A stretch of 64,000 nt of DNA from Patescibacteria group bacterium (GCA_041661745.1 JBAZTR010000002.1:68368-132367); one strand, 5' to 3'; counted from the stretch's first letter, positions 6,548 through 12,588 are shown. Translations and numbers: made by a program. The notes: generated by a model not told the origin, from the sequence alone.

Positions 6548-6623
6548 CGGGCTATAGCGCAGTTGGTAGCGCGCTTGCATGGGGTGCAAGAGGCCGTGGG
6601 TTCAAGTCCCGCTAGCCCGACCA
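6548..6623 (+). tRNA. tRNA-Pro (anticodon GGG)
   Basis: Cloverleaf parsed by hand: acceptor CGGGCTA/TAGCCCG, D arm GCGC-AGTTGGTA-GCGC, anticodon stem CTTGC/GCAAG with loop ATGGGGT, T arm GTGGG-TTCAAGT-CCCGC, encoded CCA. Confidence 0.85.
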
Positions 6624-6624
6624 A

Positions 6625-6660
6625 AAACACACGAATAAATTTCGCGTGTTTTTATTTTAA
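6625..6660. terminator. Bidirectional intrinsic terminator after tRNA-Pro and after the convergent RelA/SpoT-like gene
   Basis: aaaaACACACGaataaatttCGCGTGTttttatttt. Confidence 0.65.
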
Positions 6661-6701
6661 TAAAAAAACACGACCAGCGAATGGCCGTGAAGAGATCTCT
6701 T

Positions 6702-7799
6702 TTAGTAACGCCGACTGGCCGCGCGAGCTAGAGCAAATTCACGCAGCACCTCGAGGCCATCCTCCCACCGAATGCCGAAGAGCTTCTGTGGATATCGAAC
6801 CTTTAAAAACTCCCCAAGTCGACTGGCTTCATAGACCAGGTGGTGAGTCGGACCCGGCCTAACATTCATAGCGAGATAAACCTCCCACGAAGCCAACTGG
6901 AACTCGAAAGCCTTGGAATGCCAGCGTACTCTTAACCGACGAAGCCCTTTGACACCTGGACCAGAAGAATAATTACTAATACTGGTCCGTTCGTATACAA
7001 CAGCGTTCAGTTGACGCAAGGCTACTTCAAGTCGAGCGATCGTTTCGGAAAAATCACCGGAGACCACGGTGATTCTGATTGCCCGACGATCATCAAGATT
7101 AACACGAAAAACTTCACCCTCTTCAAGACAGTCACGAAACAGTTTCAGGATTATGGCGAAGCGCTCCTTAGGACGATCTTCGAAGTAAATCCTAGCTGCA
7201 CCAAAGTCGCGGCAAGCCAGCGTCAGTTGGTTGGTTTCGTAGACAGCCCTGTCAAAACAGTAACTGAGCTTCTGCTCAGTGGCCGAACTTGAGAAGACCT
7301 CGCTAAACAGGACCTCAACAAGGCTTTGCAAGTCTCGATTGACCCGACGGAACGGATCAAACTTTTCCACCATGGCCAAGGCGATGGATACATCAAGCAA
7401 AACCAACGCTTCGAACGATCGCCGCGGATCCGGCGGGTGGCCACCGAAGTGATTAACGGCTAGATCAATAAGATCGCCGGCGGTATTGGCCAAGCTGACC
7501 CGAGAGTCCAGACCGAGTCGAGAACTAAAGGGGTAAAGAACGCCGTTTTCGATCCCCCTAAAGCCGCTGACGGCAACCGGAATAGCGGCATCGATTTGCT
7601 TTTTGTCTCTTGGTAAGGAACTGAGGATCCAGTCTCGTCTTCTCCCAATGACTTCATCCATTCTAGCGGTTCCTTCTACGACCTTTTGCCAATCGTTAAC
7701 CGAATCAGCAATAAGTTTTCGAAGCCTTTCCACAACACCCTCCTGGGACGAAATAAAAGGAACGCCCACCCATCTTACATGGCGAGCGTTCCTGGTCAA
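6702..7799 (-). CDS. RelA/SpoT-domain (alarmone-synthetase fold) nucleotidyltransferase with an N-terminal extension of about 200 aa; possible toxSAS-like protein
   Basis: C-terminal half carries the synthetase motifs in order: RPKERFAIILK (RxKxxxSxxxK-like), DDRRAIRITVV (DxxGxR), GVKGLRRLRVRW (GYRSLH-like), EFQLAS (EIQIRT-like) and HHLVYE (HxxxYK-like). The gene is visibly GC-richer than neighbours. Alternative TTG start lies 10 nt after the ndk stop. Confidence 0.5.
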   Translation of the reverse strand: MTRNARHVRWVGVPFISSQEGVVERLRKLIADSVNDWQKVVEGTARMDEVIGRRRDWILSSLPRDKKQIDAAIPVAVSGFRGIENGVLYPFSSRLGLDSRVSLANTAGDLIDLAVNHFGGHPPDPRRSFEALVLLDVSIALAMVEKFDPFRRVNRDLQSLVEVLFSEVFSSSATEQKLSYCFDRAVYETNQLTLACRDFGAARIYFEDRPKERFAIILKLFRDCLEEGEVFRVNLDDRRAIRITVVSGDFSETIARLEVALRQLNAVVYERTSISNYSSGPGVKGLRRLRVRWHSKAFEFQLASWEVYLAMNVRPGPTHHLVYEASRLGEFLKVRYPQKLFGIRWEDGLEVLREFALARAASRRY

Positions 7800-7808
7800 G
7801 ATTCCAAA

Positions 7809-8306
7809 TTACTTTTTAATTGTAAACTGCGTGTATAAAGGATTAAAGTCAACCAACTCCTCTGGTTTAAACCAAACAGCAATCTCCGTCTCAGCTTCCT
7901 CCGGACTACCGGAAGCGTGAACCATGTTGAAAACACCAATACCTCGTTCGTCGGCATGAGCAAAAGAAACGTGAGCGTAATCGCCACGGATGGTTCCAGG
8001 CGCGGCTGACTTTGGTTCAGTTGTGCCAACCATTTTACGGGTGACCTCAACCATTTCAACGCCTTCAACAACAATGGCAACAATTGGACCAGAGGTGAGC
8101 ATGTTAATCATGAGCTCGCGAACTTTTTCGCCACGGCGACGGGCCAAATCTTCAGTGTAATGTTTGCTGGCCGTATCTTTCTCTGACACCAAAAGTTTCA
8201 TACCAACAATTTTGGCGCCGACGCGCTCGAAACGTGTGATAATTTCACCGATAATACCGCGCTCTAAAGCGTCGGGTTTCAGAAGGACTAGGGAACGTTG
8301 AATCAT
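7809..8306 (-). CDS. ndk: Nucleoside diphosphate kinase
   Basis: MIQRSLVLLKPDALERGIIGEIITRFE...NMVHASGSPEEA is canonical NDK. Confidence 0.9.
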   Translation of the reverse strand: MIQRSLVLLKPDALERGIIGEIITRFERVGAKIVGMKLLVSEKDTASKHYTEDLARRRGEKVRELMINMLTSGPIVAIVVEGVEMVEVTRKMVGTTEPKSAAPGTIRGDYAHVSFAHADERGIGVFNMVHASGSPEEAETEIAVWFKPEELVDFNPLYTQFTIKK

Positions 8307-8458
8307 ATTTTAGCTTGTAGCTTGTAGCTTGTAGGAGGTAGGTTTTTCCGGCTCCAACAGACAACAAGCCGATTAATTTTCTGCAAAAAGATTAACATTT
8401 TATTTTTAAAAAAGCAATGATTCCTGCCTACAAGCTACTTCCTACAAACTACAAGCTA
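8307..8458. repeat. Long imperfect inverted repeat: GTAG-type arm (8310-8342) and CTAC-type arm (8421-8458) around a ~90 nt spacer, forming the ndk leader
   Basis: Left arm tagcttgtagcttgtagcttgtaggaggtagg. Reverse complement of right arm is tagcttgtagtttgtaggaagtagcttgtaggcagg. On the mRNA strand the CTAC-rich arm ends immediately before the ndk ATG. Confidence 0.6.
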
Positions 8459-9388
8459 AAACGGCAATGGCCGACTCTCCACTATCGGTTCCCCACCGGT
8501 CGAGGTAATTAAAACATCGCCATCGAGATCAGTGCGGAAAATTTTGATGCCACGCGTCTGCAAACGTTCAAGAGTGGCCGGATGTGGATGGCCGTAATCG
8601 TTATCAGTGCCAACCGAAATAATGGCGTAGCGCGGCTTAGCAACTTCAAGGAAACTCCCCGAAGTGGAAGTGACACTGCCATGGTGCGCGACCTTCAAAA
8701 CATCAACCGGTTCGGCCAGGTCGTCAAAAATTTCGTCTTCCTCATCAATCGGAGCATCGCCGGTTAAAAGAATCGAGGTCTCACCATAAGTTAAAAGAAG
8801 AACAACCGAGGCTTCGTTTAAGTTGTCGAGTTTTTTGTTTTGTAAATTGGTGTCTGGGGCGATAATTTCTAACCTCACCCCTGCGCCCCTCTCCTTCGCA
8901 AGGAGAGGGGGAGTTCCCTCTGACACCAAGTCCATCACTGCTCCTTGTCCCTCGGTCAACTCGCGAACACTGTCTTGTAGGTCGTCATAACCAAGCACAC
9001 CCGTCTCATAAATTGTCCCGACATTGTAACGAGACAAAACCTCGGGCAAACCACCTTCGTGATCGGCGTGAGGATGAGTGATAATAACAGCATCAATGGA
9101 ACGGTCCCACGGCAACATGACCTGACCAAGTTTGGTTAAAACCGAACTGTCGGCTCCGGCATCCACCAGAATTTGTTCGCCCTCGGGTGTTTCGATGAAA
9201 ATTGCATCGGCTTGCCCCACGTCAAAAATCCAAACCTTCAATTCTTTATCAAGTTGCATTGTATAAAACATCTGCCAGGTTAAAGCTAAAACCATAGCCA
9301 AGGTCATAAGACCAAGGCCAACCAACTTTTTCCGTTGCGCGGAAAATTTTATTGGTCGAGCGCGAGTTTGGATCGGCGAGCGAGCCAT
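8456..9388 (-). CDS. comEC: ComEC C-terminal part: single TM helix plus metallo-beta-lactamase domain (separate ORF or frameshifted continuation of comEC)
   Basis: MARSPIQTRARPIKF...TM...VWIFDVGQADAIFIE...HPHADHEGG...VAHHGS is the ComEC/Rec2 MBL domain. It overlaps the upstream ComEC N-terminal ORF by about 37 nt in a different frame. It also contains in-frame palindromic element copy A. Confidence 0.7.
   Translation of the reverse strand: MARSPIQTRARPIKFSAQRKKLVGLGLMTLAMVLALTWQMFYTMQLDKELKVWIFDVGQADAIFIETPEGEQILVDAGADSSVLTKLGQVMLPWDRSIDAVIITHPHADHEGGLPEVLSRYNVGTIYETGVLGYDDLQDSVRELTEGQGAVMDLVSEGTPPLLAKERGAGVRLEIIAPDTNLQNKKLDNLNEASVVLLLTYGETSILLTGDAPIDEEDEIFDDLAEPVDVLKVAHHGSVTSTSGSFLEVAKPRYAIISVGTDNDYGHPHPATLERLQTRGIKIFRTDLDGDVLITSTGGEPIVESRPLPF
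8870..8911. repeat. GC-rich palindromic element copy A, in-frame inside the comEC beta-lactamase domain (encodes ...TPPLLAKERGAGVRL...)
   Basis: TAACCTCACCCCtgcgCCCCTCTCCTTcgcAAGGAGAGGGGg. Same core as copies B and C. Antisense to the host gene and read in a different frame from copy B. Confidence 0.75.
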
Positions 9389-10686
9389 AATAAAAAGATA
9401 AAGACAACAAAAGCCAAAACTGCTGACAAAATTTTTGGTAAAACAATTGAAGCAAAAAAAACTGAACCAAACCAAGTCACTAAAAGCAAAACAAACGAAC
9501 TCAAAGCCGAAGCCGGAACAGCGACAATCGCCCCGAGCGTAACGGAAAGCCAACCAACACCGAGAGCTACCCCACCAAGAAGCATGAGATATGGAATCCA
9601 CGGCAAAATAAGGAGGTTAACTAAAGGCGCGATAAGTGAAGTTGAACCAAAGTGCCAGAGCATTATCGGCAGGGTGGCCGAAATGGCGGCAAGCGAAGCA
9701 GCACACGATTCACGCAAACCAAAAACTTCAGGAATAAAATTTACTCGCTCGCCAAACCAGTTACCTAGTAGCATCAAACCGGCTGTCGCCCCAAAAGAAA
9801 GTTGAAAACCAACATCGGTAATCAAATGCGGATTAAAAATCATCATGAGGAAAGCCGAAAGAAGAAGGAGATTGCCGGCATGCGGGGTGCGACCAAGCCA
9901 GGTGCCGAGCATAACCGTCGAGGCCATAATGCCAGCGCGAATAACCGGCGGCGTCGCCCCGGCCAAAAAGATATAGAGAATAACCAGTAAGCCGGAAACA
10001 ATAATCGCTCGTCGTCGACCAAGGGTACTCCGCATGAGAAGAACTAAAAGAAGCTGAGAAAAAATAGAAACGTTATAACCCGAAGCGGCCATGACATGTG
10101 AAAGTCCGGTGTGTGAAAAATCACCCTTCATGTCTTGGCTTAACCCCTGACTGCCGCCAAAAAGAATTCCGCTCATAAACGCGGCATGTGGCTCGGGGAA
10201 AATTTTTCCCAGCCGTTCAATCATAGCCAGACGAAGTGATAAAAGAGCATCGCTAATATTCCACGCAGCCTTCCCTTGCACCACTAACTCCTCTGGGCGA
10301 TAACACACGGCGTAAACTCCACGACTTTCAAGATAAGCGGCGTAGTCAAAATCATTAAACGGTTCGGGCACGACCAGTTCACAACGAAATTCCAAAATAT
10401 CGCCAGTAGAAAAGTTCTGCCACTTAGGTAAACGTGCCAAAATTTTTCCGTTCTGTTCTTCGCCGCCAACCTGAATATTTTTTAGGGTCACTTCTTGCGC
10501 CGAATCGCGCTGAACAATCTCCCCGGCAATTGTACCGGTCATGACCGTTTCTTTATTAACAAAATCACGAACCGTGGGGCTCGTGATTTCATCAAAAAAT
10601 AATGCTTTAGCCGACAAACCAACTATCAAAACCAGTAGGATGACAAAGAGGGATCGCGACGGTGACTTATCGAGTCCCCACACCAT
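9349..10686 (-). CDS. comEC: ComEC N-terminal part: DUF4131-like region plus polytopic competence channel domain
   Basis: About 10 predicted TM helices. Region ...GLSHVMAASGYNVSI... is typical of the ComEC competence domain. Its start overlaps the ugd stop by 20 nt. Confidence 0.75.
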   Translation of the reverse strand: MVWGLDKSPSRSLFVILLVLIVGLSAKALFFDEITSPTVRDFVNKETVMTGTIAGEIVQRDSAQEVTLKNIQVGGEEQNGKILARLPKWQNFSTGDILEFRCELVVPEPFNDFDYAAYLESRGVYAVCYRPEELVVQGKAAWNISDALLSLRLAMIERLGKIFPEPHAAFMSGILFGGSQGLSQDMKGDFSHTGLSHVMAASGYNVSIFSQLLLVLLMRSTLGRRRAIIVSGLLVILYIFLAGATPPVIRAGIMASTVMLGTWLGRTPHAGNLLLLSAFLMMIFNPHLITDVGFQLSFGATAGLMLLGNWFGERVNFIPEVFGLRESCAASLAAISATLPIMLWHFGSTSLIAPLVNLLILPWIPYLMLLGGVALGVGWLSVTLGAIVAVPASALSSFVLLLVTWFGSVFFASIVLPKILSAVLAFVVFIFLLWLARRSKLALDQ

Positions 10687-11980
10687 AATAGGTGAAGCCT
10701 AAATCTTTCAAATGTTGGTCGACAAGTAAATTGCGTCCATCAAAAATAACCGGATTCAGCATGCGCTCACGAACGGCGTCAAAAGAGACCTCGCGAAACT
10801 CCGGCCAGTCGGTTAGGACAAGCAAAGCTTCAGCTCCCTCAACCGCATCAACCGCTGTTGGAGCAAAAAGAACGCGATCGCTCAACACTTCTTTGGCTCG
10901 TTCCGCGGCCATGGGGTCATAAACAATAACTTCGGCCCCATTGGCAAACAATCGTTTAACAATATCAATGGCCGCTGACTCGCGGATATCATCAGTACCA
11001 CCTTTATAAGATAACCCCCACACAGCCAAAGTTCGCCCCTTCAAACCACCGAGCTTTTCTTCCACGCGACGAACAAAAATTTCTCGTTGGTGATTATTAA
11101 CTTCGATCACGGCTGACAAAAGTTTGAAGTCATAACCGTTGCGTCCGGCGATTTGGTGAAGAGCCGAAACGTCTTTAGGAAAACAAGAACCACCGTACCC
11201 TACTCCGGCTTTCAAAAAGTGCGGACCAATGCGCGGATCAAGACCAATGGAACGAACAATTTCTGTAACATCAGCTCCGACCAAATCAGCCAAATTAGCA
11301 ATTTCATTAATGAAAGAAATTTTAGTGGCCAGAAAAGCGTTGGCTGCGTATTTGGCCAACTCGGCGTTTTCAATAGTGGTCATTACGCGCGGCGCGACAA
11401 TTCCTTCGTGCAAACGCTCGAGCAAACTTGCGGCCAAAGCGTCATTGGTACCAATAACGATGCGCGACGGATTCATGAAATCACGCAAGGCCGTGCCTTC
11501 GGCCAAAAATTCCGGAACCGAGGCCGCCAACACCAAATCAGCCAACTCGCTGTGCTCGGCCGTGCGCATGCCTTCGCGCACGCGAGCCAAAACTTTTTTA
11601 TTAGTGCCAACCGGCACAGTACTTTTGGTAACAATTACCGCTTCGTGATCCAAACTTTTTCCAATCTCATCAGCCACGGAAAAAACCGCTGACAAATCCG
11701 CTTCACCACTTAAAAGCGGCGGCGTCCCAACGGCAATCATAATTATTTCAGCTCCGCTGATAACCGAAGCAAGATCAGAAGTAAAAATAATTCGACCGGC
11801 TTCCTGCATTTCCTGCAACAGCTCGTAAAGTCCCGGCTCAAAAAATGGCGGCTCGCCCAAATCAAGTCTGGCAACCTTGGCCGCGTCGCGATCAACACAA
11901 ACCACCCGGTGGCCGAGCTTGGCGTAACCTAAGCCGGAAACCAGGCCAACATATCCGGTACCGATAATAACAATATTCAT
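10667..11980 (-). CDS. ugd: UDP-glucose 6-dehydrogenase (nucleotide-sugar dehydrogenase family)
   Basis: MNIVIIGTGYVGLVSG... N-terminal Rossmann fold, GGSCFPKD catalytic-Cys region. Length 437 aa. Confidence 0.85.
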   Translation of the reverse strand: MNIVIIGTGYVGLVSGLGYAKLGHRVVCVDRDAAKVARLDLGEPPFFEPGLYELLQEMQEAGRIIFTSDLASVISGAEIIMIAVGTPPLLSGEADLSAVFSVADEIGKSLDHEAVIVTKSTVPVGTNKKVLARVREGMRTAEHSELADLVLAASVPEFLAEGTALRDFMNPSRIVIGTNDALAASLLERLHEGIVAPRVMTTIENAELAKYAANAFLATKISFINEIANLADLVGADVTEIVRSIGLDPRIGPHFLKAGVGYGGSCFPKDVSALHQIAGRNGYDFKLLSAVIEVNNHQREIFVRRVEEKLGGLKGRTLAVWGLSYKGGTDDIRESAAIDIVKRLFANGAEVIVYDPMAAERAKEVLSDRVLFAPTAVDAVEGAEALLVLTDWPEFREVSFDAVRERMLNPVIFDGRNLLVDQHLKDLGFTYYGVGTR

Positions 11981-12000
11981 ACGAGAGGAATCTTAACAAA

Positions 12001-12045
12001 GGGGCGAAAGGGGTACAAGGGGTGGAAGGGGTAAAACGGGAATAA
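12001..12045. repeat. Periodic G-rich repeat (AAGGGGT x4, about 10-nt period); equals a CCCCTT-repeat leader on the ugd mRNA strand
   Basis: ggggcgaaaggggtacaaggggtggaaggggtaaaacggg. Reverse complement lies 25-65 nt upstream of the ugd ATG. Confidence 0.6.
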
Positions 12046-12068
12046 AAAAAGGCCTCCTAGTGGAGGCG
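12041..12068 (-). terminator. Intrinsic terminator after the GC-rich hypothetical gene
   Basis: Minus-strand reading: hairpin GCCTCC-tagt-GGAGGC followed by a T7 run. Confidence 0.55.
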
Positions 12069-12090
12069 AGACAGGGTGTGGAAGTTGGGG

Positions 12091-12588
12091 CTAGCCCGTG
12101 ATGCCGAGCCGCCGGGCATCGGCGATGGCTTGTGCCCGCCGCTCCTCCTCGCTCTGGGCGAGGCGTGCCGCCTGCTCCCGTTGCTGCTTCACCTCGACCC
12201 AGGCCGCGGCGACGGCATTCTCGTTCTCCTGGACGTAGAGAAGGGCTCTCTGCCACTCCTCGGACCTGTCGAACCCCTTGACCATGTACTTGTTGTCGCC
12301 AGACCGGTAGACGGAAAGACAGATCTTGTTACCGAGATGGATGGTGACTTCTTGTCCACCCATGCCGGTCATGCCGTCCTCGAAGAAGAACGAGAGCCCG
12401 CCGAAGTCGAGAAGCTCGCTCTTCGTGTGGTAACGGTACGTGTATTCCTCACTGGAAACGACTCGTCCGCGTCTCTCGATGAGGTCAGGAACGAAGGTGA
12501 AGATGCCGTCGAGGAAATTCTGCCGCTTAGCGACCATTTCCTCGATGGCAGCCGTGGGAAGATCGGAAGCAGAGCGGGATGCGGGCAT
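12091..12588 (-). CDS. Hypothetical protein with C-terminal coiled-coil; GC-rich cassette
   Basis: Protein-like composition on the minus strand; the overlapping plus-strand ORF is L/G/R-rich antisense noise. Bracketed by terminators at 12041-12068 and 12653-12682. Very GC-rich by eye. Confidence 0.4.
   Translation of the reverse strand: MPASRSASDLPTAAIEEMVAKRQNFLDGIFTFVPDLIERRGRVVSSEEYTYRYHTKSELLDFGGLSFFFEDGMTGMGGQEVTIHLGNKICLSVYRSGDNKYMVKGFDRSEEWQRALLYVQENENAVAAAWVEVKQQREQAARLAQSEEERRAQAIADARRLGITG

Follow-up and report, generated by a model that had tools for sequence, protein, structure and literature searches.

A divergent ndk-linked two-domain protein family of Patescibacteria with a predicted RelA/SpoT-type synthetase domain

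Bacterial stress signalling centres on enzymes of the RelA/SpoT homologue (RSH) superfamily, whose classifications are built with hidden Markov models (HMMs). Housekeeping small alarmone synthetases (SAS), RelQ and RelP, are single-domain proteins of about 200–230 amino acids (aa), detected by the Pfam model PF04607 (RelA_SpoT). The gene considered here, designated X, is located at positions 6702..7799 on the minus strand of a 64,000-nt stretch of DNA from a Patescibacteria group bacterium (GCA_041661745.1, JBAZTR010000002.1:68368-132367; the whole stretch is referred to as the window), between the gene ndk, encoding nucleoside diphosphate kinase, and a tRNA-Pro(GGG) gene. An initial annotation of the window had described X as a possible toxic SAS (toxSAS) of horizontal origin. 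The C-terminal half of the protein is predicted with high confidence to have the RSH synthetase fold, in a highly diverged form whose donor and Mg2+ site is intact, and X belongs to a separate two-domain family restricted to Patescibacteria, being neither an orthologue of RelQ/RelP nor a mobile toxin. The X family lies under the PF04607 cutoff and is missed by the standard RSH HMM. Residue numbers follow the 343-aa form of the protein (22 is added for the 365-aa open reading frame, ORF); coordinates are collected in Table 1.

Single-sequence searches with the window protein revealed no homologue in Pfam, NCBIfam, PADLOC, PHROGs or PDB (phmmer), and a word-indexed search of 5.8 billion clusters returned only the window protein itself and one 60%-identical protein, to which the family profile added one member. 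When 1.84 billion representatives were scanned in full by HMMER, a two-sequence profile recovered 54 clusters, 21 of them at E<=1e-10. Nearly all members of the family are 324–429 aa long, with two shorter fragments, and most of them align end to end; the named members are annotated as 'hypothetical protein' or 'uncharacterized protein' in every source. The source labels are Candidatus Uhrbacteria, Candidatus Magasanikbacteria and 'Patescibacteria group'. Labels from outside this clade, namely, Actinobacteria for one short contig and 'uncultured Gammaproteobacteria' for two metagenome-assembled genomes (MAGs), are doubtful: the sequence either carries a block of the type found in the candidate phyla radiation (CPR) or is too short to judge. 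The two MAGs labelled 'uncultured Gammaproteobacteria bacterium' (L015, CAZPPQ010000015.1, and L018, CAZWRL010000007.1) contain the Patescibacteria blocks comEC-MBL-ndk-X-murA or pgk-X-ndk, with pgk and ndk at least 90% identical to those of CPR loci, and their labels are probably wrong.

Assignment of the C-terminal half to the RSH fold is based on fold searches, profile comparison and weak full-length matches of PF04607 among the relatives, which bear out the RelA/SpoT-type synthetase domain proposed in the initial annotation. PF04607, with a curated cutoff of 27 bits, matches 14 of the 53 relatives below this threshold (best E 5.4e-4); the three matches inspected closely span approximately positions 1–110 of the 113 positions of the model. 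The family profile, compared with PDB sequences, matches the RxK..D region of Escherichia coli RelA (E 0.05), and the hhalign alignment of the C-terminal half to a RelA+SpoT profile (E 8.4e-6, probability 83%) extends over 120 columns and covers all the motifs. The AlphaFold2 (AF2) model built with the 53-sequence family alignment has a mean predicted local distance difference test score (pLDDT) of 93.7 and a predicted template modelling score (pTM) of 0.91, against a pLDDT of 40 with two sequences. In a Foldseek search of PDB with this model, the first 36 matches are all RSH, and the top matches of the BFVD fold search, all of them weak, include RelA/SpoT, Tas1 and YjbM proteins. RelQ, RelP and Rel score above CapRel and FaRel2 in both fold searches. 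The predicted fold of the synthetase domain, represented by a five-stranded mixed sheet and the RxK helix, is closest to solved RSH structures.

The predicted donor-site residues R187, K189 and K197, the putative Mg2+ ligands D215 and E277, and the active-site residues Q279, H298 and Y301 are conserved family-wide, each in 43–53 of the 53 sequences. K189, D215, E277, Y301 and W323 are invariant in the 53-sequence alignment, and R175, R187, K197, N254, N297/H298 and P315 are nearly so; R187 and H298 were each found in 51 members, K197 in 52 and Q279 in 43. Of the motif set listed in the initial annotation, RxK...K, the D215 motif, EFQ and HLVY align to RelA, but two readings need correcting. 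The Asp motif, which is DxxGxR in most RSH and DVRAVR in RelA, had been given as DxxGxR; the actual DRRAIR is of the form DxxAxR, with Ala as in RelA. The segment GLRRLR had been taken for the equivalent of GYxSxH, but in the hhalign alignment NGYQSIH of RelA pairs with N254-Y-S-S-G-P-G, and GLRRLR is replaced by NVLKLK even in the 60%-identical orthologue.

The reading preferred here, to which about an even chance is given, is that X is a chromosomal, vertically inherited, lineage-specific two-domain enzyme, an RSH-type pyrophosphokinase, and not a mobile toxin–antitoxin (TA) or defence island. ATP-dependent pyrophosphokinase activity is the best-supported mechanism: with ATP as the donor, pyrophosphate would be passed on to the 3'-OH of an acceptor. 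The likeliest acceptor would be a purine nucleotide (GDP/GTP or ADP/ATP), yielding a (p)ppGpp- or (p)ppApp-type product, as suggested by the basic residues at the aromatic of the predicted acceptor loop (G-loop), by the neighbouring ndk (in one exception, the gene of guanylate kinase, Gmk) and by the precedent of E. coli, in which spoT is in an operon with gmk (gmk-rpoZ-spoT). Ndk converts GDP to GTP, and Gmk converts GMP to GDP. Ndk, often encoded co-oriented just upstream, would set the pool of nucleoside diphosphates and triphosphates (NDP/NTP) that X draws on or regulates. A more far-reaching proposal, possible but put forward tentatively, is that the X family is a hitherto unrecognised alarmone synthetase of one branch of the CPR, a Pfam-invisible two-domain RSH which, together with Ndk (or Gmk where ndk is not nearby), would produce a (p)ppGpp/(p)ppApp-like signal for GTP homeostasis, with the N-terminal domain as the sensor. 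If true, this signal would serve ultra-small, nucleotide-scavenging symbionts.

Other uses of the same fold were considered less probable. The enzyme might have another acceptor or another chemistry, pyrophosphorylating or nucleotidylating some other metabolite or macromolecule, with the ndk link reflecting a need for NTP. Such a role is rather improbable, as the RxK...K donor motif, established as typical of pyrophosphate-transferring RSH and not of nucleotidyl-transferring Pol-beta enzymes (PMC11782079), is invariant here, and the top structural matches are all RSH. X could also have lost its activity and kept only the fold, as a pseudo-enzyme or scaffold. The window protein does depart from the family consensus (G218A, S258G, N297H, Q305R and P311K, with loss of the YHDP hairpin) and is among the three lowest scorers against the family HMM; retention of all five invariant residues and of the full donor and Mg2+ set, together with purifying selection, makes loss of activity quite unlikely.

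In the predicted G-loop, N254 was found in 52 and S257 in 47 of the 53 members, and most of the family carries the sequence [ST]-S-x-x-[FY]-[RK]-x-x-K. No conserved aromatic residue is in register with Y319 of RelA; the [FY] of the family follows four residues later. At this [FY] position the window protein carries V261, with Y255 earlier in the loop, and the orthologue likewise has Val, with F255. Conserved basic residues flank the aromatic of the loop in the family ([FY]-[RK]-x-x-K), in a manner similar to the positively charged acceptor patch described for alarmone synthetases (PMC11782079). The G-loop is the low-confidence part of the AF2 model, with a pLDDT of about 60, which fits the flexibility of the RSH G-loop (PMC11782079).

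The N-terminal domain, estimated in the initial annotation at about 200 aa, is indeed present and has no detectable homologue, but occupies residues 1–146. It is followed in the AF2 model by the beta-hairpin 152–177, which extends the synthetase sheet. Positions W15, R32, L88, F107-E108-A109, D114, E123, D134 and F147 are conserved. In the Pfam scan of the family no family recurs on this domain, and matches to HD_4, TGS and ACT are absent from the window protein and the 53 members. Structure prediction gave an all-helical domain instead of the CapRel-like pseudo-zinc-finger that had been named as an example to be tested. A degenerate HD hydrolase domain was also considered and is unproven: the best Foldseek matches are HD+SYNTH fragments of long RSH, covering 250–380 columns, yet these have template modelling scores (TM-scores) of only about 0.27; the domain contains no HD motif, and hhalign comparison with the hydrolase (HD) region of RelA/SpoT gave a probability below 5%, which is not significant. 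The domain is treated here as putatively new, its ancestry being unproven. The family is characterized by a charge split, the N-terminal domain having a median isoelectric point (pI) of 5.4 and a net charge of -6, and the catalytic half a pI of 9.2 and a net charge of +6. The acidic domain may pack against the basic catalytic half and serve in oligomerisation or in regulation, plausibly through autoinhibition.

The coupling to ndk, pointed out in the initial annotation, is real and conserved. Genomic contexts of family members were obtained from contig look-ups and, with a 16-sequence subset, from pattern scans of genomes in GTDB and metagenomes from JGI; they include members only 21–30% identical to the window protein. 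In 14 of the 16 distinct informative loci the distance from X to ndk is at most 3.5 kb, and in 11 loci ndk is upstream and co-directional, within a comEC-MBL-ndk-X block (MBL, metallo-beta-lactamase). The gap between ndk and X is smallest in L011 (3 nt) and L006 (66 nt) and elsewhere reaches a few hundred nt, with the exception of L001, where two genes, encoding a 78-aa protein and an M20 peptidase, are inserted between them. The order of genes in L001, the locus of the 60%-identical orthologue P0002, is UDP-glucose dehydrogenase, comEC, MBL, ndk, 78 aa, M20 peptidase, X, ..., tRNA-Pro, ..., Ham1, murA, ..., rpsL-rpsG-fusA; the housekeeping block common to the orthologues also includes M50, between murA and rpsL. 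In L003, L010 and L018 another arrangement was found, pgk<- X-> <-ndk<-uvrD, in which the proximity of X and ndk is kept and both outer flanks are different. Two loci have no ndk nearby. In L020, a guanylate kinase gene (PF00625, 2e-19) is located approximately 730 nt from X in divergent orientation, with a small mannose-6-phosphate-isomerase-like ORF between them, and a gene of the inositol-monophosphatase/CysQ family (PF00459, 6e-20) and an APH-like kinase gene are close by; the guanine-nucleotide kinase neighbour fits a purine-nucleotide role, at a single locus. In L026, an unknown ORF is located upstream of X and a tyrosine recombinase gene downstream.

ComEC is split in the window: its Competence/DUF4131 membrane part and its MBL part are encoded by separate overlapping genes, 8456-9601 (-) and 9349-10686 (-), and the same split was found in every related locus. 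The longest ORF of the MBL part, 381 aa, is over-extended by about 60 codons relative to homologues of 299–321 aa.

Base composition and the neighbouring tRNA gene had suggested horizontal acquisition, that is, a GC-rich toxSAS toxin or defence island inserted beside tRNA-Pro. The GC content of X, 0.510, exceeds the window mean of 0.459 (standard deviation 0.037) by about 5 points, and the GC content of third codon positions (GC3) is 0.51 against 0.39–0.48 in the neighbours, so X is GC-richer than its flanks, as stated. This excess is visible yet unremarkable: X is at the 91.5th percentile of equal-sized windows, and its orthologue in L001 has native GC (0.402 vs 0.406 for the locus). The GC argument for an island was rejected on these two grounds. 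The interval 11751-12500, with GC of 0.58–0.60 against 0.46, is the richest stretch of the first 16 kb and a stronger compositional outlier than X; it contains a 165-aa ORF without an assigned function (window 12091-12588, -), flanked by UDP-glucose dehydrogenase and an ORF for a trypsin-like protease. In L001, too, a gene of 165 aa, likewise unannotated, is located upstream of UDP-glucose dehydrogenase, the resemblance being one of size.

Further features expected of a mobile module are absent. PADLOC gave no match for X, tblastn found nothing in 50,697 phage records or 72,556 plasmid records, and IMG/VR scans revealed no homologue. At the window locus no antitoxin candidate and no mobile-element genes were found. 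A small antitoxin ORF was looked for at the other loci, and no conserved partner was detected; the genes downstream of X differ in every locus, being tRNA/Ham1, GATase, racemase, UppS, ATP-grasp or unrelated hypothetical proteins. Orthologues with native GC occupy the same housekeeping block, and synteny with ndk is kept across the family. An island is very improbable, even though X abuts a tRNA gene whose surroundings vary in the related genome (small ORFs, the M20 peptidase and an inverted tRNA); neither the horizontal acquisition nor the toxSAS/phage-defence module of the initial annotation is upheld. The finding that would have made X a housekeeping enzyme of the RelQ/RelP type, namely, universal orthologues with native GC, was obtained in part: a syntenic orthologue with native GC exists, but the protein is not of that type.

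Vertical descent of X is indicated by this syntenic, native-GC, 60%-identical orthologue, by the presence of one family member per locus, with no paralogue in the window, and by a dN/dS well below 1. Selection on X is purifying (pN 0.257, pS saturated), although its dN is the highest in the block. Between the window and L001, X is 60% identical, and its neighbours are 70–93% identical (ndk, 93%); the corresponding values are 46% for X vs 94% for ndk between L003 and L010, and 34% vs 79% between L006 and L012. Divergence of this kind with invariant catalytic residues could be due to relaxed constraint on surfaces or to an arms race.

The main rival of the pyrophosphokinase reading is an autoinhibited single-chain toxSAS-like enzyme similar to CapRel, which would pyrophosphorylate the 3'-CCA of tRNA. 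Its acidic N-terminal domain would be a fused antitoxin or sensor masking the basic catalytic domain, and a phage or stress trigger would free the enzyme and shut down translation. Such a self-inhibited tRNA pyrophosphokinase stays under consideration in view of the opposite charges of the two domains, the rapid divergence of X and its non-canonical G-loop, but has a low probability, since X keeps a fixed position in the housekeeping block, as one copy per locus, among members 21–30% identical, and has no PADLOC match and no phage, plasmid or IMG/VR copies. Moreover, its extra domain is N-terminal and helical, and not a C-terminal pseudo-Zn-finger with YxxY, and CapRel and FaRel2 are outscored by RelQ, RelP and Rel in both fold searches.

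A number of points weigh against X being a vertically inherited RSH-type pyrophosphokinase. The absence of a significant RelA_SpoT hit, named in the initial annotation as an argument against its own assignment, was observed in part: the window protein alone has no match to PF04607 in Pfam even at E<=1, and the three matches inspected closely among the relatives reach 14.8–17.5 bits against the 27-bit cutoff. The substrate of X is inferred from loop residues and gene neighbours. No canonical RelA/SpoT or HD-type hydrolase was found in a search of all ORFs in the window and in the loci retrieved, that is, in about 64 kb plus locus flanks, a small part of each genome. The canonical G-loop Tyr of GYxSxH does not appear to be kept in register, and the alternative Y255 is unproven. 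Some of the adjacency to ndk might reflect synteny inherited in a single clade. Finally, X evolves much faster than its neighbours, which is unusual for a core metabolic enzyme.

The 365-codon ORF with a TTG start, running from 7799 to 6702 on the minus strand, exists as initially annotated, but the start of X is almost certainly GTG at 7733, giving a product of 343 aa. This is indicated by the AGGAGG sequence 5 nt upstream, by the NCBI annotation of the identical sequence (343 aa, 100% match to P0001), by the close orthologue P0002, which has ATG at the same MERL, with stop codons upstream of it, and by the N-termini of family members, which align at this GTG in the 53-sequence alignment. Accordingly, the gap between ndk and X is 75 nt and not 10 nt as reported, and includes a promoter-like site. 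The extension of the longest ORF overlaps this site and the ribosome-binding site and is probably untranslated. Since the ndk-X spacer showed no terminator, X may also be transcribed by read-through from ndk.

Downstream, convergence of X on the tRNA gene across a bidirectional terminator was confirmed in the sense that two predicted hairpins, one of them symmetric, lie between the stop codon and the tRNA. The 95-nt region with the hairpins has a fold z-score of -4.4, and the symmetric element could terminate transcription from either side. An Rfam scan of the window detected only tRNAs, with no riboswitch near X. In L001 the same tRNA is located downstream of the X orthologue (L001:10160-10235) and is co-directional with it, whereas in the window it is convergent. 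Around this tRNA, L001 also contains the M20 peptidase gene, the 78-aa ORF and several small ORFs (L001:6357-7909, 9482-11098). The change in tRNA orientation and the extra ORFs mark the interval from ndk to Ham1 as a hot spot of rearrangements and indels, in which X itself is conserved.

Table 1. Features of gene X and its surroundings (window coordinates unless a locus is named)
Feature	Position	Strand	Basis or remark
X coding sequence, 343 aa	6702..7733	-	GTG start 7733; stop codon 6702-6704
22-codon 5' extension of the longest ORF, TTG start	7734..7799	-	outside NCBI call; not conserved in orthologue
Shine-Dalgarno AGGAGG, 5 nt 5' of GTG	7739..7744	-	direct sequence reading
Promoter-like site in the ndk-X spacer, sigma70-like TTGACC-16 nt-TAAGAT	7772..7799	-	consensus scan, 9/12 matches, pattern match only
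N-terminal all-helical domain, residues 1-146, eight helices (predicted)	7296..7733	-	AF2 model, pLDDT mostly >95
Beta-hairpin linker and RSH synthetase-like nucleotidyltransferase-fold domain, residues 147-343 (predicted)	6705..7295	-	
R187-P-K189...K197, RxK...K helix, predicted phosphate-binding motif for ATP (pyrophosphate donor)	7143..7175	-	aligns to RelA R252/K254/K262
D215-R-R-A-I-R220, predicted catalytic Mg2+-binding Asp motif	7074..7091	-	aligns to RelA D275; D215 in 53/53
N254-Y-S-S-G-P-G-V-K262, predicted G-loop, beta3-beta4 acceptor loop	6948..6974	-	aligns to RelA N317-G-Y-Q-S
E277-F-Q279, equivalent of the ExQxRT catalytic motif	6897..6905	-	aligns to RelA E335/Q337
H298-L-V-Y301, equivalent of the HxxYK motif	6831..6842	-	aligns to RelA H354/Y357
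Intrinsic terminator hairpin of X, then U7 run	6669..6689	-	fold prediction
Symmetric A-tract/14-bp hairpin/U-tract abutting the tRNA 3' end	6622..6654	.	fold prediction
tRNA-Pro(GGG), convergent with X	6548..6623	+	ARAGORN; Rfam 66 bits
ndk (nucleoside diphosphate kinase), upstream neighbour	7809..8306	-	PF00334 E 1.5e-39
Flagged positions in L020	L020:2175-2708 and L020:1119-2060	- and +	

The RSH fold and its chemistry are already known; the novelty lies in a family which the standard RSH HMM does not detect, which is confined to a CPR clade, and which combines an uncharacterised N-terminal domain with a conserved linkage to ndk. No paper on ppGpp, the stringent response or SAS in Patescibacteria/CPR was found in a literature search of incomplete coverage. 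If X is active, this clade would possess an enzyme of its own for a nucleotide second messenger or for pyrophosphorylation, coupled to NTP synthesis, and a new regulatory domain architecture would be added to the RSH superfamily. It would also offer a tractable entry to growth control in bacteria that cannot grow alone, as a protein of 343–380 aa is expressible in E. coli. The locus is also a caution: a motif match, a tRNA neighbour and a slightly high GC content mimicked a defence island, while X is a core gene. The structural intuition of the initial annotation was right, and its story of an island, toxin and defence was wrong.

Compared with toxin systems, X differs mainly in its context. 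The toxSAS TA modules (FaRel, FaRel2, PhRel and PhRel2) have a conserved adjacent, often overlapping, antitoxin gene, of which no conserved counterpart is found by X, where the upstream neighbour is ndk; their distribution is patchy or mobile (prophages, plasmids, islands), whereas X has a fixed syntenic position. The (p)ppApp synthetase toxin Tas1 (6ox6) and the exported Streptomyces SaSAS (8vx3) are distinguished by a secretion or polymorphic-toxin context and an immunity gene, both lacking for X. CapRel(SJ46) (PDB 7ztb), a fused toxSAS tRNA pyrophosphokinase, and FaRel2 (8pu4) differ from X in domain architecture, as the extra domain of X is N-terminal and helical and not a C-terminal pseudo-Zn-finger; the C-terminal tail of X, about 40 aa, is helical and contains no YxxY. 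X also has no prophage or defence context and no antitoxin gene, and its chromosomal position is fixed.

In comparison with the long RSH proteins Rel, RelA and SpoT (PDB 8acu, 6s2u, 7qpr and 5xnx), the N-terminal domain of X has neither an HD motif nor a significant profile match, and at a TM-score of about 0.27 the two domains of X do not superpose together. The regulatory domains of long RSH, namely, TGS, helical, ZFD and ACT, are absent from X, which ends approximately 40 aa past the synthetase core. RelQ/SAS1 and RelP/SAS2 (PDB 5dec, 6fgk and 6ewz) are only 14–15% identical to X, for which PF04607 is below threshold. Relative to these enzymes, the N-terminus of X is extended by a helical domain of about 146 aa plus a beta-hairpin, its family has N-x-x-[ST]-S-x-x-[FY]-[RK] in place of GYxSxH, and the C-terminal helices carry an invariant Trp; unlike RelQ and RelP, the X family is restricted to Patescibacteria and linked with ndk.

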